A stretch of 63,981 bases of DNA, filler included, from Licmophora abbreviata (Eukaryota), in NCBI GenBank assembly GCA_900291995.1. It is 16 parts of 16 records of this genome, joined end to end, with 100 filler letters (N's around TTAATTAATTAA, not from the genome) between each part and the next. Parts side by side here need not be neighbours in the genome. Positions count along the whole stretch, not along the records: positions 21,426 to 23,834 come from OLMU01001523.1; positions 23,935 to 35,963 come from OLMU01001524.1; 14 more parts are not named here. One strand, written 5' to 3'. The position numbers and the translations under genes were made by a program. The notes under the pieces are model-generated. The model had not been told where the DNA came from and ran no database searches. It was given only the letters and a program-made list of their open reading frames with translations. Shown one piece after another: positions 5,195-40,759 of this stretch. Within the stretch, counting starts at the first letter, position 1. Each line of letters opens with the position of its first letter.

Positions 5195-5294
5195 NNNNNN
5201 NNNNNNNNNNNNNNNNNNNNNNNNNNNNNNNNNNNNNNTTAATTAATTAANNNNNNNNNNNNNNNNNNNNNNNNNNNNNNNNNNNNNNNNNNNN
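5195..5294. other. Artificial scaffold linker 44N+TTAATTAATTAA+44N (also at 7542, 10237, 13373, 16450, 21326, 23835, 35964, 37464, 45375, 53798, 55802, 56957, 59444, 62754)
   Basis: Identical 100-bp structure 15 times; the 12-mer puts stops in all six frames. Confidence 0.98.
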
Positions 5295-7145: not shown

Positions 7146-8768
7146 GATAGGTAATGAGAGTGGAAGAGAGAGGGCACAAAGAAGAGCGGGACGAGCGAGG
7201 AATGTTCGATTGTGAAAGTGGAAGTGAACCACTTGGATCCGACCAATTTGGAATTTTTTGGGAACCAACCAAGAGTAAAATCTACGCGGCACGTCGACAA
7301 ACGACAGGCCTCGAGAAAGTCAACCGAGATCAGGCGGGCTCTCCGCCGGTCATCTTTACTTAACGTTGAATGTGCTGCGACAATGACCGGGATAGATGTT
7401 TGAATCAATCCAATCGCCAACGGGTGATCTGTGAGTTTTGTTGGGCTTGTTTGTTGCGCTCATTCTTCATGAGAATTGGAAAACAGCCCGTCCACTTGAT
7501 AGCTTTTAATCTGTCCCACCTCTCTATGGGCAGTCGGTGATNNNNNNNNNNNNNNNNNNNNNNNNNNNNNNNNNNNNNNNNNNNNTTAATTAATTAANNN
7601 NNNNNNNNNNNNNNNNNNNNNNNNNNNNNNNNNNNNNNNNNGGCTCTGCCGACCTGCTTGGGTTAGCGGAGAGGCATTCACCAGCGCTAGTAAAGCCTAG
7701 TTTCTCCAACAGTCCAAGACTAGGATACATTAGCTCATGCGACCTGGCACGCTCACCTGAGTGCCGTCGCATGGTCGTCTGCTCGCCTGACCGTCGGGGC
7801 GAACGAGAAAAGCGGTGCCAACCGCAGCAGATGGATTGGAAGTACGAGTACAATATGTACCAGGGCATTTATATTTATGAGTTGAAGCCAGTCGATCCAT
7901 TAAACTAAAAGAGTCTTCAGCTCTGAACGGATTCAATAGAAGCGTGCAAAGTGAGATGGCAACCATTACCGAGGGGTCAAGTGACCCGGGACCGGAGGTT
8001 ACTTCAAATGAAAGATCGGAGATATGTGATACCGGTACCGGCAGGTGTCTAAAATAGACCCCTGGGTCCGTGCTGGTACCAGGTGCAGATGAGAAGAGTA
8101 GTCAAGTAGACTACGAGTTCCAGGTACGATATATTTGTGTCGGTGGTGAAGGTCGCATTCCTCTTCAAGTTATTATTATCTTTCGCCGGTACCGGTAGCT
8201 GGTGAGTGCAGGATTGACTGGAAAGAGCGCATTCATAGCTAGTTAGTACGAGAGTAGAGAAGCCATACTACGCGACGCGCCTGTCCTGTCATGGAGGACT
8301 CGGCGTCGTTAAAGTTCGTATGAACAGCTTGCGAGTAGACGAATAAGCAAATCTTTGAGTTCTTTATTTAGAGAAGCCATACTAGCTAGCTTAGTAGCTA
8401 TTCGCTGCTTTGGCTGCTTCCCGATGATGTACCTCCTGTACAACCGATAGTGTATCGCAAAAACTTCAGTACTGTTGTGTTCAAGCAATCTGCCATCAAA
8501 GATTTCTAAGGACTCTTTGGCTACCCTGGTATCGCCTCTCACTCGGTGGCAGCCAACGCAGCAAGCCCCTCAACGCGCATATGTTCAATGTAGTAAAGAA
8601 CATGCAAGTTACGATTCGATGTACAAACGCAGTAGTATGAAACTACTTTGTAGATCGATGATTCACTACGGCGAGTCATAAACGGAGGTACCAGTGCGGC
8701 ATTTGCGTACGCTCGGTGGTGGCGGTGGCGGGTGCTTTGGTTTGCTCCCGTGGTGCTACCAACTCGAC

Positions 8769-10236
8769 CTACGGTCGCTGCAACTGGTACACACTAACAT
8801 ATCCGGGCGGGTCTCCAGATTTCAAAAATTGATCCGCACCCCCTGCCACGGTCGTTCCATCTGCCGACAGGGCCACCGAAATACCAAAGCGATCCTGCTC
8901 ACCCTTGCCAGGAATCGCACCTGCCACTTGCGTCCATGTGCCATTCAACATCTGAAACACTTGCACGTGTCCATAATTAGCTCCATTGTCGCCGTTGCGT
9001 CTCGAACCCACGGCAAGGATACTGCCGTCGGATGACAAGGAGATCGATTCACGAAAGTAATCAAAAGCCCTCTCCCCGACAAGAGTCTGGCCCAGCTGCA
9101 ACCAACTCGATCCATCGTACTCGAACACGCGGACGTGTCCGGAAGAAGCTCCATGGTCATCGTTCCAGCTTGCACCCACGGCAAGGATCCTAACGTCGGG
9201 CGACAAAGAGACCGACTCACCAAACCTATCGCCTGCATTCTCCCCGACAAGAGTCTGGCCCAGCTGCACCCAACTCGATCCATCATGCCGGAACACTCGC
9301 ACGTGCCCAGATCTAACTCCATTGCCGTCACTGGATGACGCACCCACAGCCAGGATGCTGCCGTCGGACGACAAGGAGACCGAACGGCCAAATTCATCAC
9401 CAGCATTCTTGCCAACAACAGTCTGGCCAAACTGCACCCAACTCGATCCACTCCACTGGAACACTCGCACGTGTCCGGAATGAGTTCCATTGTCGTCGTT
9501 CCAGCTTGCGCCTACGGCAATGATTCCGCCGTCTTTTGACAAGGAGACCGAAACACCAAATTCATCACCAGCATTCTCCCCAACAATAGTCTGGCCCAAT
9601 TGCACCCAACTCGTTCCATTCTGCTCAAATACTCCCACGTGTCCGGACGAACTTCCATTGTCGTCGTTGCCATATGCGCCCACGGCAACGATACTGCCGT
9701 CGGATGACAAGGAGACCGACCCACCAAACAGATCACCAGCAGTCTCCCCAACAATGGTCTGGCCCAACTGGGCCCAACTCAATCCATTCCGCTGGAACAC
9801 CCGCACGTGTCCAGAACCTAACCCATTATCGTCGTTCCAGTATGCACCCACTGCAAGGATACTACCGTCGGACGAAATGGCAATAGAATACCCGAAGGAA
9901 TCATCATTGCCGGTTCCGACAATGTCTTGGCCGAGCTGCGACCACACACCCAGTACAGGTGAGGTGCTGGGTGCTACTGATGGTACGAGAGTCGGACTAT
10001 CAGTTGAAATGGGCGCTGGAGTGGGATTCTTTGTTGTCACAGGCGCTGCGGGCGAGAGAGTTGGATTGATAGTTGTTGAAACTGGTGGTGGCGCTACATC
10101 GCTAACGGAGACCGGCGCCAGAGTCACCGCTCCCTGTTCTGCAGTGGACTTGTTCGAGGAGCCGTTGCCCGTCAGCGCGACAGCTCCACCCACGATGGCT
10201 CCCACAAGCAACACCAAACCTATCACAGAGAGGAGG
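8769..10236 (-). CDS. Type II membrane FG-GAP-like beta-propeller repeat protein, copy 2 (5' end in gap)
   Basis: TM, PT-rich stalk, seven repeats of the same consensus as copy 1, stop at 8769. Confidence 0.85.

Positions 10237-21425: not shown

Positions 21426-21459
<34 letters not shown>
21426..21459. repeat. (GT)n microsatellite at a contig end
   Basis: Direct reading. Confidence 0.95.
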
Positions 21460-21460
<1 letters not shown>

Positions 21461-21968
21461 GCTGTATATATGTCTGATTTGCAGTCAGCTACGAGTCTTG
21501 TTCTCTTGTGCGCGTCGAAGCAAGCAATCGAGGCAGCAAGCAAAAAAGACTCACTCGAGCGGTGTGGCTGTGTTGTTAGGAAGTCTACGAGTAGGAGGAT
21601 GCGGGTCTTGTATTCCATTCACGACACTCCATCACGCCGATGAGTGCGGAGGATGGATGATTTTAGTGTGTTAGAGTTTCGAACATTTTTCTGTACAAAA
21701 TTTGTGTTCTTACAAAATCTGAAAGTTCCTTCGAATTCCAAACACCAAACTTGCCGCCGACACGAGAGAGGGAAGCAATGCGGCACTGTATGATATCGTA
21801 TCGTACCAGCACAGCACGACCACAACCACTGCGCATGATACAACGCATCGACGGAGGAAGGCATTCACTACACTTTGTGTGGACTCGACTCACTCTACTT
21901 GATGCATTTTTGAAATCAGTGGATCGAAAAAGCTCCACTCGATACTAGAAAGAGACTAGTCTCCTCGC

Positions 21969-24900
21969 ATGCCGACACCCTCCACTCGACGACAACAAAC
22001 AAGACTCTCTCCTCTCCTTTCGAGGAGTACAGTCCGTACTACTACTACTTCTCTTGTCGTCGTCGTCGTCGCGAGTACCATGTCGCTCTTCCTCCGACGT
22101 GGTCTTGTTTCCGCATCCTTTGCGCATCAAGTCGTCCTGCGGTCCACAACAAGAAGAAGCAGTTCTTGTTGCAGTAGTAGTAGTAGTAGTAGAAGAAGTA
22201 GAAGAAGTAGAAGAAGTAGTAGAAGTAGCCGACCGCTTTCTCATGAGTATCCTCGATTCAGTACGAGCACACTCCTCGCATCGACAGATATCACCACTGC
22301 TACTACAGATATCACCACTACTACTCCCACTACTCCCACCACCACTACTACTTCCAACAAGAACCCCTCCTTCCAAGTCACTTCTCCCTACCAACCCGCA
22401 GGCGACCAACCCCAGGCCATTCAACAAGTCCTCCACCAACTCCAACACCACCGCGACAAGTACACCATCCTCCAAGGCATTACTGGAACCGGCAAGACCT
22501 TTGTATTATCTCACGTCATTGCCCAACACCGTCAACCCACTCTAGTCCTCTGTCACAACAAAACTCTTGCCGCCCAGCTGGCGCGGGAATTACGCAACTT
22601 TTTGCAAACCAACCGCGTCGAACTCTTTGTATCCTATTACGATCACTTTACGCCCGAATCCTTTATTGAAACGACCAATACCTACATTGCCAAGAAATCG
22701 AGTATCAATGATGAAATTGATGCACTGCGCCATTGTGCGACACGGGCCTTGTTGCAACAGTCCGATGTGGTCGTTGTGGCCTCAGTCTCTTGTATCTACG
22801 GACTGGGACTGCCCAAAGACTATTTGCAAGCGAGCACCAGATTGACAGTGGGGGAGACTATTGTGAATCATGCGACTCCTACTGATGCTGCTTTGACAGC
22901 TCTGGTGCAACAGTTGGAACACGACATGTTGTATACGAAACCAGAAAAACAAGACAATGACGACTTGGCGAGAGGCAATTATCGCCTGCACGAGAGTAGT
23001 GATGGAGAGGTGGTGATCTTGTCCTTGTGGCCACCCCACGAACGATTTCCTCTGCGCATGGAATTGCAGCACGACAACAACAACAACAGTCTCCACATTG
23101 CATCGATTCAACAAGCTACAGCACAGGGGACACTGGTCTCTCATGAGTCACTTCAGATCTTTCCTGCCAAACATCATGTCATGGCGGAAGATCGGGTGGA
23201 GGATGCGTGTAGGAGGATTGAAGAAGAATTGAAGGAACGACATGGGCAACTCCAAAGCATGGGCAAGCTGGTGGAAGCGCAGCGACTGCAACAGCGGGTC
23301 TTGAATGACTTGTTGTTGTTGCGAGAAACGGGCTATTGTTCGGGAGTGGAGAATTACTCGCGGCACTTGGCGGGGCGGGAAGAGGGTGTGCCGCCGGATA
23401 CATTGTTGGAATATATGAAGTTGGCATCCGAGGATTGGTTGCTGGTGGTGGATGAGTCGCATGTGACCTTGCCGCAACTCAAAGCCATGTATGGGGGTGA
23501 TCGAGCGAGGAAGCAACGATTGATCAAGCATGGGTATAGATTGCCGTCGGCATTAGACAATCGACCGTTGCGAGAGGATGAGTTTTGGGACCAAGTGTCG
23601 CAGACTATATTGGTGTCGGCCACGCCGTCCAAGTATGAGTTGGAATGGGCGGAACGAAAGCCTGTGCCCATGATGATACGACCGACCTTTGTGTGTGATC
23701 CGCCGATTCATGTGAGGCCTCCGAAGGGGCAGTTGGAAGACTTGTTGGGGGAGATTCGAACGAGAGCGAAGCGGCAGGAGAGGACCTTGGCGGTGGCATT
23801 GACCAAACGGGATGCGGAAGACTTGGCATCCTATNNNNNNNNNNNNNNNNNNNNNNNNNNNNNNNNNNNNNNNNNNNNTTAATTAATTAANNNNNNNNNN
23901 NNNNNNNNNNNNNNNNNNNNNNNNNNNNNNNNNNCCTATCTGTTGGAACAGGACGTCAAGGCGACGTACATTCATTCGGGATTGACGACGCACGAACGGT
24001 CCGATGCGCTCAAGTCGCTGCAGAGGGGTGATATCGACTGCTTGGTGGGAGTCAATTTACTACGAGAGGGGCTGGACTTGCCGCAAGTCTCGCTCGTGGC
24101 GATTTTGAATGCCGACTCGGAGGGCTTTCTTCGGTCCGAGACGGCGTTGCTTCAAAGCGTCGGTCGGGCTGCACGAAACAACAATGGCGCGGCAGTCTTT
24201 TATGCGGAGCGCATTACGGGGAGTATGCAGCGATGCATGGACAGTACCAAGGAACGGCGGGAGCGGCAGCTTGCGTACAATAAAGAGTTTGGCTGCACGG
24301 CAGTGTCGACCAAGGGGTCCACAATGATGAGTATATTCGATCTACTGAAGGATCAGATTCAGGAAGAGCAGTCCATTGAAATGGTGGATTCGAGGGGGAA
24401 TAGTCTCAATCAGAAATCGAAAGCGGAACGAGATACGATCGAGACGGTCACTGTTACGCTTCCGTCCAGTAACGAATCGAGCGCTGCGGTTGTGAGTGAT
24501 CATCTTCCAAGTAAACCCGGCGTATACTTCTGGAAGGATGACCAGGGAAAGATTTTGTATATCGGCAAGGCGAAGAAGCTGCGAAGTCGCGTCAAATCCT
24601 ACCTGACTCCAGGTGCAAAACACAGTTCGCGGATACGAACCATGCTTGGAAAGGCTACGACGGTCGACTTTATGCTCACGCCGAGTGACAGAGATGCGTT
24701 AGTTCTCGAGTCGAACCTGATCAAACACCACCAACCGCCGTACAATGTTCTGTTGAAGGACGACGAGCAGTATCCGTACATTTGTGCAACTCTAGGAGAT
24801 GAGTATCCACGATTCCACGCGGTTCCGCGGAGGCAAATGGGCGAACGAGCGGCAAAGTACAAGTACTATGGCCCGTACCCGCACTGGAACGAATGCAATC

Positions 24901-26225
24901 AGATTCTGCAGAGGATTGAAGAAAAGTATGATTTACGCGCGGGATCGTTCGCTTCTCGCCACGGTGATAGGACGAAAGCGTCTTACAAGGAACTCTTCAG
25001 CAGGGTAATGACGGAAGTTTTTGAATCTGATTCGGGTTCTCTCCCCAAGATGCGATCGGACTACGAGGAAGCGAACCTCCTCTTTGACAATGCTTACAAC
25101 AAGTGTCGGGACGTCATCGCGGTGGGACGGACTTCTGGCGATGAAACGTCGGCAGTCGTGCAGGTCATTCAGCTGCGAAATGGTCTAGTAGCAGGTCGAT
25201 TTTCTTATGCGTGTCAGCTCCCAGCTGGCTTGTCGTCCGAGGAAGATCAAGCGACGGCGATTCAGGCTGTTTTAGAGCGACGGCACTATCCGTCTGGTGA
25301 GACGGCGCCTAGCGATCGATTTAGTTTCTTTCCCGACGAGATTCTGGTTCAATATCCTTTGACGAACACGAGAGGATTCAAATCTGCTCTTCGTTCTCTG
25401 CGAAAAAGCGTCGAACCCGAACGGAAAGACACAGTCACCATTCGTGCGCCCTCAAAAAGAGGCGCCCGGAAGGAGACTGACCAGAGGGCGATGAACTTTG
25501 CGATTGAAAATGCAGATCAGGTGGCACTGGAAATGTCGTTCGAGAGTCAAGGTGTGGCGAAAACTTCGGTTGATGGAACTGCATTGGCTGAACTCAAGTC
25601 GATGCTTGCCCTCGATGAAAATCCCAGTCGCATTGAATGCTACGATATCAGCCATATGCAGGGTGAAGCAGCGGTTGGATCGAGAGTCGTCTTTATCGAC
25701 GGAAAACCCGCCAAGCATCTTTATCGAAGGTTCAATATTAAGACAGTTGAGGGTGTCGACGATTACGCGTCGATTGAGGAGGTTTTGGAGAGACGCTTCC
25801 GGCGGCTCTCTAGTGACGAAGTTCCTGATCTTGTGGTGATCGATGGTGGGATTGGACAGCTTGGTGCGGCTGTGAAGGGCATGTCCAGAGTCGGTGTCGT
25901 CCCGATGCTCCCACAACGCCAAATGCAGAACGGAACCGACGCAGGGGAGATCGTACAGGAGGAATTCATCATGAATGAAGGGACTACCTACGGTAATGAC
26001 ACTCTCGTTGGCGCTCGTCAGCGCGTCCAATCAGCCTCTGTGCCAGTGGTTGCCTTAGCCAAAGAGAATGAAGATTTATATCTGCACGGTGTCACTGGTC
26101 CTATCAATGATACGCCAGACTCGCCGGCTCTGTTGCTGCTCCGTGCCTTGCGCGATGAATCTCATCGCTTTGCACTGAACTCACATCGGCGCCGTAGATC
26201 GGCTCGCAACGGTCTACGAACTTGA
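21969..26225 (+). CDS. uvrBC: UvrB-UvrC fusion excinuclease with N-terminal targeting extension (~1383 aa once linker 23835-23934 is removed)
   Basis: UvrB motifs: PAGDQPQAI, GITGTGKT, HNKTLAAQL, VSYYD, GVENYSRH, DESH, RLPSALDNRPL, SATP, NLLREGLDLP, GRAARN. UvrC motifs in the same ORF: PGVY..LYIGKAK.LRSRV.SY, LESNLIK..PPYNVLLKDD, IECYDISH, PDLVVIDGG.GQL, RDESHRFA. Contig ends overlap (CCTAT), giving in-frame LASY-LLEQ. Confidence 0.93.
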
Positions 26226-26304
26226 TGTCATGTAAAAGCCAAATTAAGAATGAACAAACCTCTCTATCTAGTATGATATCATGCAAGATTACGTAGACTG
26301 CGAA

Positions 26305-29300
26305 TTACACACACAGCATCTCGTCGTGTTCAACTCGGTCAAGAGCAGACTGAGCGTTCTTTCTCAGCGGATGCTCCTCGGGAACCCCCGACCGCTTGTA
26401 GATTTCAATGGCTTTCTTTATCGACTCCTGGGCTTCGGTGAACTGGCACTTCTTTAATTGCAAGCCGCCGAGGCCGACATAAATTTCTCCTGTGGACGGA
26501 TGAGTCGCTCCTACAGTCTCTTTCGCCATGGGCAAAGATTCTTCATAGTACTTTGCCGCATCCTTTGAGCGGCCGAGCTCCGTCAGACATCCACCGATGC
26601 TCGAAAGGGCCATTGCAACATCGATGTGCCGCTCGCCTAGTGCCTCCTTTCGCATCTCAAGAACCCGCTCACACAAATGAAGCGCTTTCTTGTGCTTTCC
26701 CATCTTGCCTTGAACAATGCCAATTCTGTGTAGCGTCGATACCTGGACCGGATGGTCTTGACCAAGGAATTCTTCGCCCATCTGAAACGACTCCTTATAG
26801 AAGTTCATCGCGCTTGTCAAGTCGGACTTCCACTCGTACGCTCTACCGATGGAAAAGAGAGTCAGTGCCATATCTGGATGTTTCCTCCCATAGACCCATC
26901 GCTGTGTCTCAAGAATAGATGAAAAACCTTCAATTGCCTCGTCAAACTCGCACCGGCTCACGAGAACACTGCCGAGGGCCAAGCGAGTACGGAGTGCTGA
27001 TGGATCTTGATCTCCTGTCAACTTCTCTTGAATATCAAAACATTCTTCAAGAGATTTGACAGCAGCATCATAGTCAGCAAGCTCGATCTGGACAAATCCA
27101 ATGCGCTGAAGGCATTCGGCGACAGCCAGGCTGTTGTTGCCGAGGTTTTCTCGTAGGACCAAGAGTGCATCTTGAAATAGACCGAGCGACTTCTTGAACA
27201 TAGATAGGTGATAGTCAACAGTTCCAGTCATCACACGAGCTTTTGCCAGTTGCACATTGTCACAACCAAGCTCGGTCTGGATGTTCAGAGATTGATCGTA
27301 GTAGTCTATAGCTTCCAAATACACCCCTGCCTTGCAGCTCAGAGTGCCAAGACTTGTCAACGTAGAAGCTAGCTCCTCCTGGATATCGTCCGTGGTTCCG
27401 CTCTTCATCAATTGCACCTTCTCCTCAAGAAAAGAAATGGACATTCTGTAGTCCCCTCGCTCCTCGTGGGCTCGAGCGATCACGTCAAGCATACCTGTTT
27501 CAATAAACGTGTGGTAGTCATCGCAATTCGATCGAATTGTCGCCAGGGAGTTTCGTTCTTGGTAGTACACCTCTCCAATACGAATCAGTGTCTCAATAAC
27601 AGCTGGGTGACTGAGATCATCCCCTAGACAATTGTTCAAAACCTGAAGCGCCTCCTGATGACACTGCATGGCGACATCAAACTGTTGCCTCGCTGCATGC
27701 ACACGCCCGATCTTGTTCAGAGTATTTGCAATCTCCGGGTGAGAATCACCATACCATGACTTCTCGATCCATTGTGCGTCAAGATAGTAGGAAAGAGCTG
27801 ACCGAAAGTGCTTCTGTTCACAGTAGGTATCAGCCAAGACATGCAAAGTTCGGGCAATTTCTGGTCGATCAGCTAGTGATTTCCGGATACGAAGCGCCTC
27901 GAGGAGACTTTGAACTGCCAAGTCGAGTTCTCGAACCTGTCTATGTGCCAAGGCAAGCTGTGTCAATGCTTCTGCAACTTCAGGGCTCTTGGGGCTAAAA
28001 TTCTTTTTTTGCTCCGTCAACGTTGCCTGAAGAGACTTGATATTCGAACGCGTACGAGGGGAAACACTATAGCGCCGAGAAGAGATTGAGGTGCCTCTGG
28101 ATTGATTCTTCAGAATTTTCCGCTTCCTTGTGACTTTGCTGCGATGCCCATCCCCCTTCGAGTTACTGCTCGGCGAGTCGCGTGACAAGTTCAAGATCGA
28201 CTGTGGCAACAGATGACTGGCTTCCTTTTCATGTTCGTTCTCGGAAATGCGGCTCTCATCATCAGATAGATCCTCGAATGGGTCTGAATCTTCCTCGGTT
28301 GAGTCTACGGAGTCCCATTCGGACGTTCGCGATTTCACGACGTCATGAACGGACTCGGCGGACAGAAACTGTTCCGCAGCACCAAGCACGGCCTCATACG
28401 TCGTTTCCCACCAAAACTTGTCAGTCTGGCCCATTTTGAACTCGTTTGAGTTGTAAGTGAGTTGGGAAACAGAATCGTCGCCGGATGGCGAGGACTGAGT
28501 GGAGATAAATGTGATGGGACCAGGAGTGGATGACGTAGAGCCACTGGACGCTCGCATCGGCAGGGCGTCTTGCTCCGAGGCGAACAGATGCGGACGAGTG
28601 TCACTGTTCGGCACATGCTCACCCTCTTCTGGCATACTTTCTAGCTGTGACTTGGCTCGACGACGTCGAAATCGCCCTGACAGAGCCTTCGCAAGCCTCT
28701 GTCGAGGCGAGTGCTTGGTCACAGGCCGCTCCGATTCCATACTCTTCCGTGGGGTATGGGGAGAGATAGTTTGAGCTGGAGAGATTATTTGCTTCTCCAA
28801 GTTTATCGCCGTCTTTCCCACAGACATCGATCGCCTACTTGCAGTGCTACTTGGTGAGCTCTCTTTCACTTGTTTCTCTGAGCTGGGGACACTCTCATCC
28901 GGCATGTCGTCGACTAGCTGCGTCTCCACCGCGCCATTCGTGTGCTCTGCATCGTCGTGCTCTGATGGCTCCACAGCTGGAGAAGCTACTGAGACTACAA
29001 AATTGTCTCGGGCGACTGGCAACGAATCAAAATCTGCTTGAAACCCAACTGTATCAGTGACTCTGTGCGTTTCAAATTCCGCTTCGTTCGCAGGACGCGA
29101 CACCGTATCGCCATCTGATTCGCTAGCCGACTCGTAGTCCGTCATATCGGGATCACCATTACTCTCGTAACCTGAGAAATCCGACGCCCATTTGGTCATC
29201 TTTGGAAAGTCATCATCGCTTTCTTCTCCCTCTTCATCTTCACACGAACCATCCTCGCTTCCAGCAGACTTGAACTCATCCGATATGTCTCCGACCTCGG

Positions 29301-31791
29301 GAGTCTGCATGCGCTCCAAAGAGGCTTCGATGCCTTGATCGAACATGTCAAGAATAGAAACATCTCTGCGGTCTGCCAGTCGCAGTCTCGCTAACCTTGG
29401 CGATCTTGAAGTCGATTTTGACGTCGATCCAGCGCTGGACCGTGACGGCAGAGATCTGGGTGACAAATTTGATTCGAATGATGGCAAGAACAGATTATCC
29501 GTTTCACCAGGAGAGGTCCACGCCGAGCCTCCTCCAGAGCTATGGGAGAACGGACTTCCAAGCTCCGACACATCCACCACTGCTTGCCTCGAGTCGATCG
29601 AAAGCACTGTCGTCTTGAGCCCGCTGCGCGACGGACTGGACGCTGATGGCTTTGATGGACTCGTGTAGGGATTAAACTCTACAGGATTCGTGGGTGAATG
29701 CGAGGCGCTGCCAAAATCATTGAAGTCTCCAAAGGAATGCTTTGGTTTGGACAGATGGCTCGATTCGCTGAGAACCGATGACACTGTCTCTACCGCAACT
29801 TCGTGACGATCAGATTCCCCACTGCGCGAAGCTGCTGAGCTGATAACGACTTGTTCTTCGGATATCTTTGTCTCTTCCGCAACTGACGATGATCGATTGA
29901 CGTTCTCATAGACTCGAACAATCACCCTGGACGACGACATATCCGTTGCCTCACTCGCCGCAGGAAGTAGGGATTCCCCCAATAAACCACTCACAGTAGA
30001 CGACGATGGATTCACAGTCACAGCATCAACCAACTCTCTTGTGCTTTTGTCCAACAAGACTTGCACAGGATCATTTTCGGCAAAACCAGTAGAAGTGCCA
30101 GTAGGGTTCAGTAATTGCGACGATTTCAGCAGGCATTCTCGCGCTTCCGCAAATCGCTTCTGGTCCATGTAGGCTCGTCCCAATCCATGGTGGACATTGG
30201 CGAGTTCCATGCGGTGAGAACTAGTCAATTCCTCATCGTCTTGTTCCTCGGTGTTGGTGTGGAGTGACAATGCCGCCTCGAATTCTACAATCGCCTCATC
30301 GACGGCTTGCTGCTCTGCCAATAGTATCATTCCAATTCGCGAGTGCACTTCGGTCAGTTTCCAACAAACAACATCGCTCTCTTCATCATTCGTTTGTTCT
30401 TGTTCCTGATAGATTCGTTTCGCTTCTCGATACAAATCTAGAGCCCCAAAAGCATTGTTCTGTCGCTCCAACACGACCGCCACATCCATCAATGCATGCG
30501 CCACTTGAGTATGAGATTCCCCCAGTTCCTCCGATTGCGCATGCAGAACAGTTTCAAAACACGACAAGGCCTCGTCGAGTTGACTGGCATCATCATGATA
30601 CAAGTAAAACTTTCCCATACATTGAAGGACTTCCAGTACTTGTGGATGATCGTGGGGATGGAGTTGCAACCGTAATTCAAGAGCCTCTTGAAGTGATTGT
30701 TGTATATCTGCTGCGGAGGAAGGGACCTCTGCTTGTACTGTATCATGCTCATGGTTGGTTGCAGATGGTGGTACTGTACTTGTTGAAGTATTTGATCGAT
30801 CCATCTGTAGCGTACTGTAAGTCAAACACGCATCCGCCAGTCGCGCCCGTAGTGTCGTCATGCCGTCGTCATTCTGCTCTTCCCTCTCTACTAAAAAGAC
30901 TCTCCTCAGCGTATTCATAAGAGCCAACAATGCTGATATCGCCTGCTCTTCTTCTCCTCTCTCCACATGCAAGTGGACCAAACTCCTGAGGGAAAAACTA
31001 AAGAGCAACATGTTCTGTTCAGATGACAATGATGTCTGGAAGGGCAGTGATGGTGAATATATAGAGTCGGCAGTTGTTGTCGCAGCAGTAGACTCCTCTT
31101 CTTGTTGTAACAATAACAGTATTCCCACGGCTTGTTCGTGGCATTCCAAGGCCGACAATGAATCGTGCAAGTGATCATGATGAATCAAGGCGGCCAGTTG
31201 CAGTGTCTCGACGTAGTCTGGAATCACGACCAAATCAGGCTCTGCAGTACTAGTACTAGTAGTACTTGTTGTATTCAAGTAGTCTCGATACTTGTCACAG
31301 GCTCGTGTCAAGCAGTAGAGGGCATCTTGGTAGTCCCCACATTGCTGGTGCAAGACACCCATCTTGTGTAGGATGGAGGCAGCCTTGAGAGCGTCGCAGG
31401 CGTTTGAATTTTGTGCCAGTGCCGTTTCGTAGGATTGTATGGTTGCTGCTGCGGAGTGTCGCTGTTGATTTTGAAGATGAGAATTGTTGCTGTTGTTGAT
31501 TGAGGCGATCAATTTGGATTCCAATACAGTAGAAGTAGAAGGAGAAGAAGAAGCAGTCGTAGTCATGGTAGTACTCCCGGTGATGATATGCTGCTGGTTT
31601 TGCTGCTGGCGATGATTCTGTGACAGAGTTACACCAGCAGAAGTTTCCTCCTCGGCTGCAGAGACGTCGCTGTCGCTGCTGCTATCCGTGTAAGCACTAC
31701 TAGTTCTGGGCAAGCCGCCTTCCATCATGCTGGCCACTGCCAACGAAAGAGGTCGACTGGTCGTGGTAGAAGCCGAGAGAGGAGCCAACAT
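26305..31791 (-). CDS. Large TPR protein (kinesin-light-chain/nephrocystin-3-like repeats) with disordered middle
   Basis: N- and C-terminal blocks of 42-aa TPRs (e.g. HPEIANTLNKIGRVH...A...HQEAL); S/E/D-rich centre. Confidence 0.85.
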   Translation of the reverse strand: MLAPLSASTTTSRPLSLAVASMMEGGLPRTSSAYTDSSSDSDVSAAEEETSAGVTLSQNHRQQQNQQHIITGSTTMTTTASSSPSTSTVLESKLIASINNSNNSHLQNQQRHSAAATIQSYETALAQNSNACDALKAASILHKMGVLHQQCGDYQDALYCLTRACDKYRDYLNTTSTTSTSTAEPDLVVIPDYVETLQLAALIHHDHLHDSLSALECHEQAVGILLLLQQEEESTAATTTADSIYSPSLPFQTSLSSEQNMLLFSFSLRSLVHLHVERGEEEQAISALLALMNTLRRVFLVEREEQNDDGMTTLRARLADACLTYSTLQMDRSNTSTSTVPPSATNHEHDTVQAEVPSSAADIQQSLQEALELRLQLHPHDHPQVLEVLQCMGKFYLYHDDASQLDEALSCFETVLHAQSEELGESHTQVAHALMDVAVVLERQNNAFGALDLYREAKRIYQEQEQTNDEESDVVCWKLTEVHSRIGMILLAEQQAVDEAIVEFEAALSLHTNTEEQDDEELTSSHRMELANVHHGLGRAYMDQKRFAEARECLLKSSQLLNPTGTSTGFAENDPVQVLLDKSTRELVDAVTVNPSSSTVSGLLGESLLPAASEATDMSSSRVIVRVYENVNRSSSVAEETKISEEQVVISSAASRSGESDRHEVAVETVSSVLSESSHLSKPKHSFGDFNDFGSASHSPTNPVEFNPYTSPSKPSASSPSRSGLKTTVLSIDSRQAVVDVSELGSPFSHSSGGGSAWTSPGETDNLFLPSFESNLSPRSLPSRSSAGSTSKSTSRSPRLARLRLADRRDVSILDMFDQGIEASLERMQTPEVGDISDEFKSAGSEDGSCEDEEGEESDDDFPKMTKWASDFSGYESNGDPDMTDYESASESDGDTVSRPANEAEFETHRVTDTVGFQADFDSLPVARDNFVVSVASPAVEPSEHDDAEHTNGAVETQLVDDMPDESVPSSEKQVKESSPSSTASRRSMSVGKTAINLEKQIISPAQTISPHTPRKSMESERPVTKHSPRQRLAKALSGRFRRRRAKSQLESMPEEGEHVPNSDTRPHLFASEQDALPMRASSGSTSSTPGPITFISTQSSPSGDDSVSQLTYNSNEFKMGQTDKFWWETTYEAVLGAAEQFLSAESVHDVVKSRTSEWDSVDSTEEDSDPFEDLSDDESRISENEHEKEASHLLPQSILNLSRDSPSSNSKGDGHRSKVTRKRKILKNQSRGTSISSRRYSVSPRTRSNIKSLQATLTEQKKNFSPKSPEVAEALTQLALAHRQVRELDLAVQSLLEALRIRKSLADRPEIARTLHVLADTYCEQKHFRSALSYYLDAQWIEKSWYGDSHPEIANTLNKIGRVHAARQQFDVAMQCHQEALQVLNNCLGDDLSHPAVIETLIRIGEVYYQERNSLATIRSNCDDYHTFIETGMLDVIARAHEERGDYRMSISFLEEKVQLMKSGTTDDIQEELASTLTSLGTLSCKAGVYLEAIDYYDQSLNIQTELGCDNVQLAKARVMTGTVDYHLSMFKKSLGLFQDALLVLRENLGNNSLAVAECLQRIGFVQIELADYDAAVKSLEECFDIQEKLTGDQDPSALRTRLALGSVLVSRCEFDEAIEGFSSILETQRWVYGRKHPDMALTLFSIGRAYEWKSDLTSAMNFYKESFQMGEEFLGQDHPVQVSTLHRIGIVQGKMGKHKKALHLCERVLEMRKEALGERHIDVAMALSSIGGCLTELGRSKDAAKYYEESLPMAKETVGATHPSTGEIYVGLGGLQLKKCQFTEAQESIKKAIEIYKRSGVPEEHPLRKNAQSALDRVEHDEMLCV

Positions 31792-33194
31792 GCTTGTTTC
31801 AATTCTCAATTTGGAGTCAAATTTATATATTTGCGAGGCCGCTGACAAGGCTGTGTCTGTTGACTTTCTCTTTCCACACTACCCCCGTTGTCTCTGTGTT
31901 TAGTCTACTGAGAGCTGTTCTTCCCCAGTTTCTCTCTATCTCTCTGTGTGTCACACATACAGTCTCTCTCTATCTCTCTGGAAGAAAAGCGTTGTAACAA
32001 GAGATACTCCAATCGCCACCACGCCGTGTGAATGTTATGCGTTCCAGTCGGGCGGTCGCGTACCGGCACGGATGGTCCGGAGCAAAGCTACATTAGACAG
32101 TATATTTCCATGTATACCTTTTATGTCTTGGTCTAATCATTCAATATTATTAATGTTTTAAGTATTTATTAAAGCGCCATGTTCGCCGAATAGGAATGCT
32201 CATTATACAAATACATAGATAGGTGAGAAAAATTTGGAATGGGGTTCTCATGTGATGTCAGGCGCGTGACGAGGTCTTGTGTTGGCGCGCTTTTTGACTT
32301 CTTCGACCTGATAGAATACTCAAACATGGCGTCGACAAAGCAAACCATCCTCGCTCCTCTCCAGAGCATGATGATGACTGAGAATCAATCTCCTGAGAAT
32401 CAATCTCCTCAGTCTTCGACGTCTTCGTTATAATCACGACAAGCTTTGTTCTACAGAGAGAGAAGAAAAAGTGTCGTGGAGAGAAGAAAAAGGATCGCTG
32501 AATGTTTCGAATCGATTTGACTTATTCAAGTCGAACACTTACTTCTGACGGCGCACGAGACTAGTCAGCGTCTAGTAGTTTCGAGCGAACATCAACAAGC
32601 TGTCCGAGCGCCATCCTGAGACAGATGAGGGTTTTGCATCATGCGAACATTGCTACTACCATAATCTGTTACTGTAGTGGCACCGTGATGATGTGTGTAT
32701 GTATGAGAGTGACAACGAGCGAGTGACAACAGACGCCGCGCGGACTTCACTGTACTTCTACAAGAGCGTCACATTTGGGACACAGAGTCTTGTTTCCTGT
32801 TCGGACAACTTGCAATCTCGGCCTTGGGCATGAAGACACTATACAAGGATACTTACGAAGTCTGTCTTCAGTGCACTCTCTCGACTTCAGAGTCGCGGAG
32901 CGTCCGTTGAGAATCAATATTTCGGAGATGCCTCGTCTTCATTCAAATCCATACCGTCCGTTGAGAATGCATTTTTGGGAGGTGCGCCGTGAGCATTGAG
33001 GATTCGTGGAACACTGGTCATCAAAAGAAACATTGAATGGATTGAGGTGCTCAATAGATGTTGCACCTCTTTATAAGAACAAACCGCTCACAATTTTGAG
33101 AAAGCTGCGTTTTCGCTTCCTGTTCTTCCTTCTATCGTGTCTTCGCTGTTAACAGATTCCAGTTGCCACCATTGCAACCATCATTGAAGTGAGG

Positions 33195-35337
33195 ATGATC
33201 TTCCACAAGACCTACTCCCTCGCTCTCTTGGGCCTTTTGCTTCTTGGTCCACACAAAGATGTAAGCTTCGTCTCGTCGGTGGAACTCAAGTTGAGGGCTG
33301 GTCCCTCCTTGGATGCGTCCGGCGTCGTCGAGCCCAGCATTGACGCAACGCCCCCGAAAGACAACAAGTGCGACGGCGATGAGTATATGGCGCCTATCGT
33401 CATTGAGTCGTCTCTTTTGCTCGACTTTGCGGGCTTTCAAGGACTCGTCATTCCGGCCGAAGTCAATGTCCTCGAACGTCAGTTCACTGAAACCTTCGAG
33501 AATCTAACAAGTGTGCTCTGTGATCCTCTTGGGGCCTCCTTTACCATTGAGCAACTCATCTTTTTGAGTGGACATGATGATACTGAAACTTTTCAAGAAC
33601 GTCGCGCTCTCACTGATAGTGGTGATGGTGGTGGGGGTGGTGGAAGTATGCCGACGTTCACCTATCCGGCGCGAGTCCAGGCCAAGTGCACCGGAAAGGG
33701 TTGTCCCACAAACAACATGCTCTTTCGCGAGGATGGTGGAAGCTTCAGGGCTCTCAAAGAAGGAGAAGAACATGGATCATCGATCAGAGATCCTGCGAAG
33801 GATGCGGTCTCTGAAGTTCCCTTGGACGGAGCCAAGCGTCGCGATCTTACCGGAACTAGTTGCGGTGCGTGCAAGGCTCCGACCATCAACCAGTTCGCGC
33901 AGGCCTACAACGCCGACATTCAAGACCTCTACGACGGAAATGTGATCGGCAACGTCCAGGGCTTCGAAGGCATCATACCCCTGACTGCAATCGAGTGCAG
34001 TGGTGAGGAATCTGAATTCGAAGACTTCGTAGACATTGACTTCTTCGGTGACCCGGACCTTCTTGGTCCCAGCGACATTGACATTTTGGGAAGTCAGATC
34101 GTTCAAGATTATAACTTTTTGGCTGTGAATTTGTGCGACCCCTTCTTCCGTCGATTGGTGGCTGCGGACGTCATCGACAATGATGACGATGGTGGCGGAA
34201 GGGGTCTGCGACAAAGCCGGAACCTGCAGAGGCGCTTCAGGCGTCGCTTTCGTCTTCGAGGCCGCTGTCGTGGTTGTAGGAGGAGGAGGCGAAGTCGTGT
34301 GTTTGATGACGCGGTTCGGCGCCTAGGTACTCGGTCTGTTGACCCTGATTCTTCCCCGCATCGTTCTCTCCAGTCGATTCCCGAAGCGTTCGTATGCGTG
34401 TGTGATCCCGCAGTTGCCAATGATCCAGCCGCGCGGAGGGCTCCTACGGCGAGCGAGTTCACTGCCCTGTACGCAGAAAGCGTGGAAGCACTAGACATTG
34501 ACGGTGCGGATACGGTGCTAGAGACTGAGGTGGTCCCAACGGCTGAGCTCCCGCCTACTGTAGCTCCAAGCGCTGTGGCTCCCACGCCGCAGCCCACCTT
34601 GAGGCCTACGCCTCAGCCAATTCCCGTCACCCCTCCCTGCGGTGGTTCATGTGACGACGGTGATCTCTGTACAATGAACAGGTGTGATACAGGCACGGAC
34701 ACTTGCATCACAGAGCCCGTCGTCTGTGGCACCGATGAAGCCTGCGACTCCTTTACGGGTCTCTGTCAGAACATTCAAAATATTGTCCCTTGTGTGGCCG
34801 TCATTGATGAGTGGAATAATCGCAACTATACCAGTGAGTGGGCCAGCTTCCGGGCTCGATACCCTCAACGTCCCTTTTGCCTGCTAGTCCCAAATAGCTT
34901 TATCCAGACACTGTAAGTACATCCATCGATAGGACAGTGTATGTCCGCATGAATGGATACACTCACACCATGCTGTCGCGTTGTCTTATTATGTCTTTCC
35001 TCGGGGCAGCCCTGCTGGTTTTGATCTTGATACGCTCAACAATCCGGACGGCGTGGACCGCACGCTTGCGTCTAATGTCAACCGCGACAACGGCAATGTT
35101 AATTTTGCGTCGAACTGGTTCGATATCTGTAACCTTGGGGCGTTGTCGCCTTCTTCGGTCGGCTTTGTTGGTCTTTTCATCGACACGTCGGGTAGTATGA
35201 GGTTGAGCACGGTCCGGGCCTCATACGAACAGTTTTTGTCGAACTTGACGGATGCCGGCTTGGGCTTCCAGCAGGTCTTCAACAGTGTCGAACGTTGGAT
35301 CGATCCTTTCCTCACAACCTTGGCCCCTCCGACGTAG
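33195..35337 (+). CDS. Secreted multi-RXL protein with two related Cys domains, Pro stalk, Dictyostelium-type Cys repeat and vWA-like C-terminus; intron 34913-35009
   Basis: Signal peptide; repeated LCDP...CxGC...APT..F...Y unit; CDDGDLCTMNRCD; splice CT|gtaag...cag|C joins to the exon with VGLFIDTSGSM. Confidence 0.75.
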
Positions 35338-36506
35338 TTGGAGTACTGTGTGTTATCTCTTATGTCCCCTCTGCATCGCTAGCACCAAGAACACGACAGC
35401 TTTGTGTAAAATCATAGTTTACATTACCTAGTGAACTTAGCATGTCAATCAAACGCACCACGGCGCAAAAGCGTACCGGTAGTCCTATACTAGTAGCGCG
35501 TAAAAGAGTGGTCAGGCGTCACATACGCCGACTATCTGGCGGAAGGCAGTCCTCTTGGACGTCGAATGAATCTTCTTACCACAGACACGTAAACGTCGTT
35601 GAGGATGCGGTTGATGTCAATGAAATCGGCAGTCAGATCCTCCTACTGTTACTATTATTGTTACACTACATCTACTTGTCTGTGGGGATTCTTCATGGAT
35701 CATCGCCCCCTGCGAGGTTTGATGTGAGATAAAAACGTCGAATAGACTACGTAAATCGAAACATCCCCCAAGCAACGACAAGGGGCAGCGCGACCATGGC
35801 CACAGCCGAAAGACATCCTCGTGCCCTCATCGTGGTCGTCTTTGGTCTGTTCGCTTCCTTCCATGGCGCACACCTGAAGCTCTGTGGTGTCTGATGAATA
35901 CCGAGCTCCCTCCCTACGCCCGAATCGCCAGCAGCGACGAGCCACAGCAGCCATCCCCCGACANNNNNNNNNNNNNNNNNNNNNNNNNNNNNNNNNNNNN
36001 NNNNNNNTTAATTAATTAANNNNNNNNNNNNNNNNNNNNNNNNNNNNNNNNNNNNNNNNNNNNACCCATGAATGGATACGGTCGCCACTGACGGCTGTGG
36101 TCACGTCAAGGATGCTCTGATATCGTCCGACGATAAGAGACCGAACCGTCAAACACATCGCCTGTATCATACTCCCGCCGACGCGGCTCTTGCTAGACGG
36201 ATGCCAAGTCAACTCCTTATCATGCATCCAGTACTAGCTCTGCAGTCGGCTTGCGGAAACTAAACGTCGCACTACAGATTTTTTGAAGTGTGACTGGGTA
36301 TGCGTGCAACCTCGAAATAACTAGGAAAAAGCGTACCCGGTATGATAAATAACATCTACTCGGAGTACAGGTTTATAGGAGCCTTTTTCACACCGCGGGA
36401 CGGAGGACAATATAAATACTCGCGTAGAACAAGTCCTCATCAACGGGCAACTCCTCATGAGAATCCAAGATAGGCTTCTCCCTCCCATCAACACTGGTGA
36501 ATCTTT

Positions 36507-39292: not shown

Positions 39293-40138
39293 TTAAGCTT
39301 CACTAATCCAAGCTTCACAGGGGAACTCGACGGTGGCAAGGTTGACGATTCGGACGACGTTTCCGGCTCCTGGGGCTTCCATGACGACGTAGAGCGGATT
39401 AGCCTGTCCGTTGTTGGTGAAGACCTCGAAGGTCTGCTTGATGTTGTTGGGACCGTTTAGGAGTTCGACCCGTGCGTTGAGTTGACGTCCGTCAGTGTTC
39501 AACATGACTTGGACTTGTTGGACGGAAGATGGGAAGGGCGTGGTGTAGACGGCTCCTCCTTGGACGCGTACAGGGGGGCTCATTTCAGGTATCTGTTTGG
39601 TCATGTCGGAGAGAGGGGGCTTGGCGTAGGCGCAGGCGGCGTTCATGGGGAACTCATAGGAGTTGGTGTTACGAACGGCGAGTGCGTTCTCTCGGTTGCG
39701 AGTGCCAATGAGCGTTTGGACCGGGCGCTCCCTTCCGTCCTCGCTGTACACCTTCAGCTTGAAGGGAGTCCAGTCAGGCCCGATCCACAACTGGACGTCA
39801 GCGTTGAGGGGACGTCCCTCGGTCTCCAACAGACAAGTGACGGACTCGATACTGGTGTCGCGAAAGGTCCATGTACGGAGAGTGCTACCCTCGACCCTAA
39901 TAACGGACTCGGGATCATCCCATCCAACACGCTGCATGCCTCCACCAGCACCGTACGTGGGATCACTGGAGTAGGGCGAGGGGCCGCTGAGGGCTCCTGG
40001 AGCCGTACTGCTACCGGGCATGGGCGGTGTCGACTGGAGCGCAGAGGATCGCTGGACCTTGGGCGTCGGAATGACAAAGGCAGAGGACCCCCACACGAGG
40101 GTCTGGAGAACACTGAGCGCTGCGAGTTTGCCGTACAT
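39293..40138 (-). CDS. Plastid-targeted diatom protein of unknown function with an internally duplicated domain
   Basis: SSA-FV cleavage motif; two copies of V(E/Q)G...L.T(E/D)GR.LNA.V.L..GP...V.N....EFP..A. Confidence 0.8.
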   Translation of the reverse strand: MYGKLAALSVLQTLVWGSSAFVIPTPKVQRSSALQSTPPMPGSSTAPGALSGPSPYSSDPTYGAGGGMQRVGWDDPESVIRVEGSTLRTWTFRDTSIESVTCLLETEGRPLNADVQLWIGPDWTPFKLKVYSEDGRERPVQTLIGTRNRENALAVRNTNSYEFPMNAACAYAKPPLSDMTKQIPEMSPPVRVQGGAVYTTPFPSSVQQVQVMLNTDGRQLNARVELLNGPNNIKQTFEVFTNNGQANPLYVVMEAPGAGNVVRIVNLATVEFPCEAWISEA

Positions 40139-40759
40139 CTTGGTTGTTGCTGTCTCAAAGAGAGTAATTGTGGGCTGGAAAGATCTAACGCGTGCGTATC
40201 TTTCAGGTGTGATTGTGTGGTCGGTGGAGGTGAACTGCTGAAGCTTTTTTGCAATTTTGAGTTCGGATCCTATTCTTCCGATCGTCACTCTGACAGGCGC
40301 TACAAGTTTAGTTATGTTCATCACGTTCTCGAATAAGTATACTGCAACTCCGGACTTTCCAACGTCATGGATGCGTACAAACTGCAACGGCCGACGTCAT
40401 TCATGCGTCCTTGTGACTTTTGTTATTTATGAAATCATGCTGTTTCCTATGTCGACTTGAAGTTGCAACGTGTCTTTGGCGATTGTCCGACTGAAACTCG
40501 AGCTTTCGGTGTTCGCTTCTCGTTTCCTCTTCGGAAGGAGCGAAGGCCGGGCGAGCCGTTCGGATACGGGTGAGGCGCCGGACAGACTACACTGAAAACC
40601 CGGACGTAGCGCAAATGGGGTCATTGCCGGTTTTTCAAACGCGAGTGTGAGAGCGGGACACAATGAGCGCTCGACCATGATGGCGGCGTCAACGGAGGCC
40701 AGCTTTCTACCTAGTAGACTAGACTGCATACGGCAGTACCGGTAGTGAAGTAAGAGGAG

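Follow-up and report, generated by a model that had tools for sequence, protein, structure and literature searches.

Does a eukaryote keep two subunits of the bacterial excision nuclease in a single polypeptide, and in which part of the cell would such an enzyme act? UvrABC repair is treated as prokaryotic. The question was raised by a locus of the diatom Licmophora abbreviata, in a stretch of 63,981 nucleotides from assembly GCA_900291995.1 (the window), where two open reading frames (ORFs) on the plus strand read as UvrB and then UvrC. In the excerpted text of a 2006 census of GIY-YIG proteins (PMC1564403), UvrC is counted in 310 bacteria and 8 archaea, with no eukaryote and no UvrB fusion listed. 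We consider it probable that the locus is a diatom nuclear gene for a single-chain, bacterial-type UvrB-UvrC excision nuclease which is imported into the plastid, possibly also into the mitochondrion. The family to which it belongs suggests that bacterial-style excision repair may survive inside an algal organelle.

One gene across a contig join

The two ORFs are listed at 21969..23882 and 23943..26225, and their coding parts as joined are 21969-23834 (ORF1) and 23937-26222 (ORF2). The window is a chain of 16 contigs separated by 15 identical 100-base spacers, each consisting of a six-frame-stop linker between two runs of 44 N (N44-TTAATTAATTAA-N44), and one of these spacers lies between the ORFs. 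Across the join the sequence reads GCATCCTAT, 44 N, TTAATTAATTAA, 44 N, CCTATCTGTTGGAA, and the bases CCTAT at 23830-23834 occur again at 23935-23939. When the duplicate CCTAT was collapsed both ORFs were in frame, as DAEDLASY-LLEQDVKATYIH (ASY, then LLEQ).

Three independent rulers were compared across the join. The NCBIfam UvrB model NF003673 matched over positions 2-462 in ORF1 (E 4.4e-166) and 462-617 in ORF2 (E 1.1e-51), a hidden Markov model (HMM) built from 74 bacterial UvrB ORFs over positions 3-463 and 463-615 of 662, and Bacillus caldotenax UvrB (PDB 2fdc_A) over residues 4-464 (E 1.1e-134) and 464-612. Because all three resume at the same residue, nothing is missing at the join and ORF1 and ORF2 form one gene, as the original prediction had proposed from the 5-bp CCTAT overlap. 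The NF003673 scores of 554 bits for ORF1 and 176 bits for ORF2 are each under the whole-protein cut-off of 743 since the gene is split by the spacer and is without domain 4. The fusion is independent of the spacer join, a point also made at the outset, because the UvrB C-terminal part, the linker, the GIY-YIG domain and both RNase H-like domains are in one ORF within the gap-free contig 23935-35963. The two ORFs encode a single-chain UvrB-UvrC protein.

An in-frame TAG is found 9 nt 5' of the first methionine codon, and the leader of the gene comprises 540 non-coding bases with a (GT)n run. This microsatellite (21426-21460) comes directly after a spacer and opens the 2.4-kb contig on which the 5' half of the gene lies; it is a likely reason for the assembly break there.

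Domain organization and catalytic residues

From matches to families and structures, the predicted chain comprises a 133-residue N-terminal extension, a complete UvrB ATPase core, a linker of about 64 residues, a GIY-YIG nuclease, an inactive RNase H-like platform and a DDH RNase H-like nuclease (Table 1). Matches in Pfam, NCBIfam and PDB agree with the order first read from the DNA (UvrB, a linker of about 60 residues, GIY-YIG from about 24500, then an RNase H-like nuclease).

Table 1. Features of the UvrB-UvrC gene, in positions of the window.
Feature	Position	Strand	Evidence and remarks
N-terminal extension	21969..22367	+	ORF1 residues 1-133; no family match; UvrB homology from residue 134
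UvrB core part 1 (domains 1a, 2, 1b, start of 3)	22368..23834	+	ORF1 residues 134-622; NF003673, PDB 2fdc_A
Walker A GITGTGKT	22476-22499	+	In UvrB core part 1
UvrB beta-hairpin	22629-22709	+	In UvrB core part 1
UvrB domain 2	~22815-23183	+	In UvrB core part 1
VDESH	23448 onward	+	In UvrB core part 1
Assembly spacer	23835..23934		Not biological; flanking CCTAT is a 5-base contig overlap; zero residues missing by profile and structure rulers
UvrB core part 2 (rest of helicase domain 3 and PF12344 helix)	23937..24305	+	ORF2 residues 1-123; Helicase_C E 2.2e-14; PF12344 E 8.9e-13; PDB UvrB chains from residue 464
UvrB/UvrC linker	24306..24497	+	ORF2 residues 124-187; ~64 residues; no family match; predicted mostly disordered, one short helix
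UvrC GIY-YIG nuclease (3' incision)	24498..24773	+	PF01541 E 1.6e-8, ORF2 residues 194-270 (nt 24516 on); PDB 1yd6_A/1ycz_A
Beta-sheet motif and shortened helical region	24774..25106	+	Place where the bacterial Cys-rich (iron-sulphur, FeS) motif and UVR/UvrB-binding hairpin would sit
UvrC inactive RNase H-like platform	25107..25520	+	PF22920 E 6.9e-7, ORF2 residues 391-528
UvrC RNase H-like endonuclease (5' incision)	25578..26207	+	PF08459 E 1.9e-45, ORF2 residues 555-657 and a second stretch
DDH triad D570, D636, H743	codons at 25644, 25842, 26163	+	Align to D391, D459, H535 of 8b0q_A (Deinococcus UvrC)
Stop codon	26223..26225	+	ORF listing

The core of the UvrB half is a superfamily-2 ATPase that bears Walker A, DESH and motif VI and aligns collinearly with bacterial UvrB over domains 1a, 2, 1b and 3. 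Conservation was measured over near-invariant columns, defined as those conserved in at least 90% of 49 bacterial UvrB sequences, and a column was counted as kept when its residue was present in at least 80% of 21 fusion rows. Domain 1a keeps 27/32 and 8/10 such columns, domain 1b 47/54 and domain 3 53/77.

The UvrC half scores 327.2 bits against TIGR00194 (cut-off 285.45) and starts with the GIY-YIG nuclease. Neither of the two family alignments (43 and 39 rows) shows any variation at ORF2 residues Y197, Y208, R218, Y222, E258 and N270; K211 does not vary among the 39 rows of the one and reaches at least 90% conservation among the 43 rows of the other. The Tyr, Arg, Glu and Asn residues we take to be catalytic in this protein. 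The C-terminal RNase H-like endonuclease carries the DDH triad, each residue of which is invariant or at least 90% conserved in the family alignments (triad numbering of Deinococcus UvrC from the part of PMC10085695 available). Within this domain is an inserted loop of about 40 residues (ORF2 residues 658-699, 25908-26033) which is variable in sequence; it is present in many diatom members and absent from the relative labelled P0003 and from bacteria. The ATPase motifs and the GIY-YIG and DDH active sites are intact, and the scaffold of the beta-hairpin appears to be so.

ORF2 was modelled with AlphaFold2 on a 39-row alignment, giving a mean predicted local distance difference test score (pLDDT) of 79.6 and a predicted template modelling score of 0.50. 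The inserted loop is of low model confidence (pLDDT <50 over residues 665-697). Since pLDDT is also below 50 over residues 124-137 and 144-183, the linker is predicted to be flexible, and the stretch of about 64 residues between the two enzymes would be a tether.

Modules absent from the fusion

At a threshold of E<=1 neither the window ORFs nor five deep members of the fusion family nor one Triparma protein matched the Pfam families for UVR (PF02151) or HhH, while both bacterial UvrC sequences run as a control (2/2) matched both. When 39 family members were scanned the four core domains matched in 39/39, and the list of 25 matching families, which went down to one with 3 matching members, contained neither UVR nor HhH.

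Alignment to bacterial profiles placed the losses. Against an HMM of 36 bacterial UvrC sequences (609 positions) the window matched over 10-155, 250-489 and 482-546; in the other 24 fusion rows the first block ended at about 154-161 (one at 210), the second started at 196-371, and the match as a whole ended at 544-553. In 25/25 rows, with small variation, the profile was skipped from about 157 to about 247 and the chain stopped near 548 of 609, and in the window some 26 residues (ORF2 351-376) span about 95 profile positions. In the AlphaFold2 model helices occupy residues 317-381, with one short helix at the place of the UVR hairpin by which UvrC binds UvrB, and that helical hairpin was not found. 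Nor was the UVR coiled coil at the C-terminus of UvrB (domain 4), as the bacterial UvrB profile match stops at 615 of 662 and no UVR motif follows the PF12344 helix. In bacteria it is domain 4 of UvrB that recruits UvrC.

The Cys-rich motif, whose consensus CX6-14CX3H/QX3CX3C after the GIY-YIG domain is given in a section of PMC10085695, was matched as a regular expression in 25/36 bacterial UvrC sequences vs 0/77 fusions, the window among those without it. The tail after the helix of the catalytic His has a median length of 17 residues in 61 fusions vs 76.5 in 36 bacterial UvrC sequences and is 19 residues long in the window, where the alignment to 2nrt_A ends at chain residue 163 of 220; the terminal (HhH)2 DNA-binding domain was not found. 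On this evidence the UVR-UVR docking pair of both halves, the Cys-rich motif and (HhH)2 are gone across the fusion family. The original prediction had seen none of these modules in the window and had proposed that covalent fusion replaced the docking module; Pfam at E<=1, the HMM gap, the motif search and the tail length agree with the first statement, and the losses that the second predicts were found both in the window and in every member of the fusion family that was examined.

UvrA-binding surface and beta-hairpin

Domain 2 of UvrB, and Arg183 within it, act in UvrA binding according to passages of PMC3458569. This surface is poorly kept in the fusion family, in which 4/8 near-invariant columns of domain 2 remain and R183, R194, G197 and R213 are lost. 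Arginine is present at 183 in 48/49 bacteria vs 4/21 fusion rows, at 194 in 48/49 vs 2/21 and at 213 in 46/49 vs 9/21; the window itself is conservative at these three positions, with K, R and R. The Pfam family UvrB_inter matched 12/39 family members and had no match in the window at E<=1. The loss of these residues speaks against selection for the classical UvrA contact in the fusion family, and is no proof that UvrA is absent. Domain 2 also contains a motif of the family's own, L-W-P-P-x-E-x-F-P (ORF1 ~340-360, window ~22990-23050), with W in 19/21 rows and PP in 21/21 at positions that are variable in bacteria; a new contact, either within the chain or with a partner, may be made there.

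In the beta-hairpin of the window Y92, Y93 and Y108 are kept and Y95 is replaced by H, Y96 by F and Y101 by F, the changed residues being the consensus across the family. We take these aromatic residues to act in damage verification, in part following passages of PMC3458569.

Distribution of the family and genomic setting

An exhaustive profile-free search of 1.84 billion representatives returned 24,333 matches, headed by proteins of up to 1401 residues whose own middle-to-end part matches ORF2. Of 120 relatives listed by a word-indexed search (41-73% identity), the majority of the long sequences have the fused Pfam set, and the same fused architecture was seen in more than 70 proteins. Those with names are from Nitzschia sp. 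Nitz4, two Bacillariaceae metagenome-assembled genomes (MAGs), Amphora coffeaeformis, one MMETSP peptide with an organism name beginning 'Pseud', Triparma verrucosa and Triparma laevis, and a second search added Nitzschia inconspicua and Pseudo-nitzschia multistriata. Relatives lie on contigs of 1.29 Mb in Cylindrotheca closterium, 3.63 Mb in Thalassiosira profunda and 4.35 Mb in Nitzschia inconspicua. Triparma we take to belong to the Bolidophyceae; deep members outside diatoms and Triparma are P0015, P0018, P0022, P0025/P0261 and P0031. It had been guessed from the window that similar fusions exist in other algae, and they are indeed present in public protein sets of diatoms and Triparma, where they are automatically named 'excinuclease ABC subunit B'.

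Some members are longer than the rest. P0265 (1774 residues) and P0262, P0263, P0266 and P0268 (1450-1490 residues) have much longer N-terminal regions or internal insertions, and the UvrB profile aligns to P0265 in three separate pieces. Such additions could be real or could stem from faulty gene models.

The GC content at third codon positions of the gene (0.55-0.56) falls between the extremes seen in eight other genes of the window (0.45-0.64), and its codon frequencies correlate with theirs at 0.82. As a taxonomic marker the clearest in the window is an ORF for a diatom pyrenoid shell protein (39293-40387, minus strand, PF25192 E 3e-81). A genuine diatom nuclear gene in a eukaryotic setting, as first claimed, is supported by the diatom homologues on Mb-scale contigs and by this composition.

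The fused form was not seen among 80 of at least 464 bacterial loci, confirmed out of at least 600 stretches, where ordinary uvrB was the only form; this is no proof for all bacteria. In two of these loci, L074 (153-4797, a Thermoanaerobacteraceae MAG) and L037 (155-4773, a Coprothermobacterota MAG), an ORF of 946-953 residues, presumably uvrA by its size, lies directly 5' of a uvrC of 603-609 residues and overlaps it by a few dozen bases. A metagenome search with P0025 found only bacterial UvrC at 27-30% identity, and an Atlas search found only bacterial UvrB clusters, at 0.84.

Origin of the two halves

The two halves were placed in separate phylogenies, as had been recommended. The UvrB tree (70 rows, IQ-TREE LG+C20, quick search, unrooted) was supported by the Shimodaira-Hasegawa-like approximate likelihood ratio test only. 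In it 21 fusion rows fell on one side of a branch with support 100, 11 cyanobacterial rows were grouped with support 98 and 38 other bacteria of 18 named phyla with support 99, and the fusions together with the cyanobacteria were split from those 38 with support 99. The fusion stem is long (0.64), and the clade stands beside the sampled cyanobacteria, not nested within them. With a profile of five deep fusions, the best bacterial UvrB sequences were cyanobacterial in 22 of 23 organism-named matches, Gloeomargarita included, and the 23rd, labelled as an Actinomycetota MAG, falls within the cyanobacterial clade. The UvrB half thus appears to have a cyanobacterial affinity.

In the UvrC tree (52 rows) 16 fusion rows formed one clade with support 96. 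A word-indexed search with the UvrC region of P0025 gave mixed phyla; the best bacterial UvrC match, P0029, adjoins an Atlas cluster in which Cyanobacteriota is the commonest phylum, which is a lead only. Both trees share the same coarse groups, namely diatoms with Triparma, P0025 with P0261, and P0022 with P0015. As each half forms a single clade with the same groups within it, the trees fit a fusion that arose once, anciently, and then evolved as a unit.

N-terminal extension and predicted targeting

The extension has two in-frame starts, Met1 at 21969 (133 residues) and Met38 at 22080 (96 residues), and the second aligns to the start of P0154, the closest homologue. It was described at first as about 130 residues with a hydrophobic stretch, VSASFA and an S/T/R-rich segment, and closer reading bears this out. 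After the hydrophobic stretch comes GLVSAS-FAHQ (VSAS-FAHQ being residues 47-54, with the codon of F51 at 22119; in full, MSLFLRRGLVSAS before FAHQ), followed by an S/R/T-rich segment that resembles a transit peptide. Twenty-odd full-length relatives likewise have a short hydrophobic stretch with a small-x-small end and then F or W, for example MTIALLLHRVSS before F, MLFFMWLLLLSSRRCVA before F, MTTACLCWVSSRATA before F and MFVFVTIRLARA before W. This is presumably the bipartite plastid signal of diatoms ('ASAFAP' type), which we take to consist of a signal peptide, a small-x-small end, F/W/Y/L at +1 and then a hydroxylated, basic, acid-poor transit peptide.

The motif [AVSTGC]x[ASGC] followed by [FW] was present in the first 70 residues of 33/43 N-terminal extensions, among them a few 5'-truncated models that cannot score, vs a mean of 15.2 (standard deviation 2.9, maximum 24) in 500 shuffles; the N-termini are related and not independent, so that the enrichment is to be read qualitatively. 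A stricter rule which also called for a hydrophobic heptad gave 26/44 vs 10.0 (maximum 16) in 200 shuffles. The 40 residues past the site contain 15% Ser, 12% Arg and 4% Asp+Glu. The fusion N-termini carry this ASA-F-type motif, a putative bipartite plastid signal, far more often than shuffled controls.

Proposed mechanism and alternatives

If the plastid reading is right, the protein would be imported into the plastid and its UvrB module would load on damaged organelle DNA and verify the lesion. The flexible tether of about 64 residues would then bring in both nucleases, GIY-YIG to cut on the 3' side and the DDH RNase H-like domain to cut on the 5' side. The covalent link would stand in for the lost UVR-UVR coiled coil in recruitment, and might raise the local concentration enough for (HhH)2 to be dispensable, offsetting weaker DNA binding. 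Such a tether fits two findings in passages of PMC10085695, namely that the UvrB-UvrC interaction is required for 3' incision and that Deinococcus UvrC without (HhH)2 keeps 3' incision and is partly impaired in 5' incision.

Several observations weigh against an imported, working excision nuclease of this kind. The targeting call is built on our own pattern counts, the signal peptides are short (12-19 residues) and atypical, many with Arg in or beside the hydrophobic core, and the stricter rule misses VSAS-F in the window and picks another site. Only 6/16 near-invariant columns of the beta-hairpin are kept in the family, such that damage verification may differ, and without the FeS motif and (HhH)2 incision could be impaired or altered. 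As to origin, the cyanobacterial rows of the UvrB tree were chosen as best matches, the other phyla were thinly sampled and the search was quick, and the UvrC tree has no resolved bacterial sister of the fusion clade among its 52 rows. The pyrenoid shell marker sits on a different contig than the UvrB-UvrC gene, and therefore the diatom setting rests mainly on the diatom homologues and the shared composition. No RNA sequencing run with this stretch was listed, the best matching runs sharing 0.20 of the sampled words, and the bases 23935-26225 matched at 99% or more to 13 short metagenome contig pieces (151-554 bases, 4 runs), none of which spans the UvrB tail to the GIY-YIG domain and which are uninformative on transcripts or the join. 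Finally, the transcriptome-derived peptide P0234 has its Met start in the UvrB tail and goes on across the linker to cover UvrC; it could come from a contig that lacks its 5' end, or some species may make a shorter product with UvrC only.

In a bolder version the fusion would be a self-contained, UvrA-independent excision nuclease, one polypeptide that finds a plastid DNA lesion, verifies it and cuts on both sides. We put this forward tentatively, as a possibility well short of probable. If true, it would be a minimal natural form of prokaryotic-type nucleotide excision repair with all hand-over modules shed (the UvrA patch, both UVR motifs, FeS and (HhH)2), and direct evidence of such repair operating in a eukaryotic organelle.

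The strongest rival keeps the enzyme and moves it: it would act in the mitochondrion or in both organelles, not in the plastid alone, the weak Arg-containing signal and the choice of Met1 or Met38 giving ambiguous or alternative targeting. The Arg-bearing signal peptides just mentioned would suit this, as would the upstream Met and second Met just before the hydrophobic stretch that the window, P0001 and P0155 have among other members, and according to sections of PMC5462543 targeting to both plastid and mitochondrion is an ancestral and common trait of ochrophytes, alternative start sites being one of the ways to it. We nevertheless think it unlikely, given that F/W at +1 after a small residue is about twofold enriched over shuffles and that the UvrB half is nearest to cyanobacteria, not alphaproteobacteria.

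Less likely still is a neofunctionalised helicase-nuclease, acting for example on stalled forks, R-loops or recombination intermediates in organelle DNA, with no lesion-dependent dual incision. In its favour, divergence is concentrated in the beta-hairpin and the UvrA patch, the FeS motif, UVR motifs and (HhH)2 are lost, and the L-W-P-P motif of domain 2 hints at a new contact. Yet at least 39 members show little or no variation in the nuclease active sites and ATPase motifs, the hairpin aromatics stay aromatic or shift to a family-wide consensus with no decay, and domains 1a, 1b and 3 keep most of their near-invariant columns. An artefact, that is bacterial contamination or a scaffolder's chimeric join of uvrB and uvrC contigs, would suit the position of the UvrB N-terminal part on a 2.4-kb contig between spacers (21426-23834) in a 16-contig chain, but is hardly credible when the UvrB-to-UvrC junction lies in a gap-free contig shared with a gene for a TPR protein of 1847 residues, the spacer join is residue-exact by three rulers, the architecture recurs in more than 70 proteins (some on Mb-scale diatom contigs), the 80 bacterial loci seen, of at least 464 confirmed, were unfused, with a presumed uvrA beside a normal uvrC in the two examined closely, and the composition is like that of neighbouring genes.

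Other features of the window

The TPR gene converges on the UvrB-UvrC gene from the minus strand (26305-31848) and ends 80 bases past its stop codon; the N-terminal half of the product is long and of low complexity, and after it come many TPR_12/TPR_10 repeats and an NPHP3-like TPR region. At 2311-4050 (plus strand) an ORF for a Cys-loop receptor-like diatom protein was recognized by the ligand-binding domain of neurotransmitter-gated ion channels (PF02931 E 2.3e-24). Two FG-GAP repeat (PF14312) proteins at 5247-7292 and 8769-10226, both on the minus strand, are on adjoining contigs and may be paralogues or one gene cut by spacers. Wherever an ORF or other feature stops at a spacer, it may run on in the next contig, like the UvrB-UvrC gene.

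Comparison with known systems and significance

In each half the domain order is that of bacterial UvrB (2fdc) and of Thermotoga and Deinococcus UvrC (1ycz, 2nrt, 8b0q), and the protein shares with them Walker A, DESH, motif VI, the GIY-YIG catalytic residues, the inactive RNase H platform, the DDH endonuclease and, with altered residues, the beta-hairpin. Unlike them it is one polypeptide with a predicted disordered tether, lacks UvrB domain 4 and the UVR hairpin, FeS motif and (HhH)2 of UvrC, has UvrA-binding residues that are unconserved in the family, and is nuclear-encoded in a eukaryote with a predicted N-terminal import signal. With the core features of both enzymes present and the accessory ones absent, it appears to be a distinct, fused and trimmed variant that is conserved and whose function we infer.

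Two experimental systems come close. A Deinococcus radiodurans UvrC engineered without (HhH)2, described in part of PMC10085695, keeps both nuclease domains as the diatom protein does and still cut on both sides, less well on the 5' side. From the diatom chain the Cys-rich and UvrB-binding motifs are missing as well, and a tether takes the place of docking. E. coli UvrBC acting without UvrA (PMC5814901) is reportedly a UvrB-UvrC unit that finds damage and cuts, in line with the idea that UvrA may be dispensable for the fusion. In E. coli that unit is non-covalent and UVR-dependent, and UvrA is present in the cell; the diatom unit is covalent.

Cho is a UvrC homologue with the N-terminal nuclease only. 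The fusion is like it a GIY-YIG nuclease of the UvrC family and, unlike Cho, keeps the C-terminal endonuclease. Identity with Cho was rejected, as the NCBIfam model for Cho gave 51 bits vs a cut-off of 367.

The plant 'uvrB/C' gene AT2G03390 is likewise a nuclear gene for a plastid protein, discussed in part of PMC4824065 as a hint of plastid excision repair. Its product has a short UVR motif and a YccV domain only, whereas the diatom protein has whole enzymes but lacks precisely the UVR motif. The sequences of the fusion family are public and automatically annotated already, and a search of the open-access literature, with subscription journals outside its scope, turned up no account of a UvrB-UvrC fusion in diatoms or other algae. 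The main text of Dorrell 2017 (PMC5462543), in the part covered, has none of the terms 'excinuclease', 'uvr' or 'excision', and its external supplementary tables could list the protein.

For the repair field the family would be a natural experiment, in which UVR-UVR docking was replaced by a tether and the FeS motif, (HhH)2 and the conserved UvrA-contact residues were then dispensed with, and the roles of the lost UvrB and UvrC modules would be directly testable with one recombinant protein. Diatoms are major marine primary producers and are exposed to UV. Flowering plants encode no homologues of UvrA, UvrB or UvrC, and excision repair seems absent from plant organelles, according to excerpts of PMC6981420. 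If the apparently plastid-targeted fusion works, diatom plastid genomes would have a repair route that is missing from land plants.

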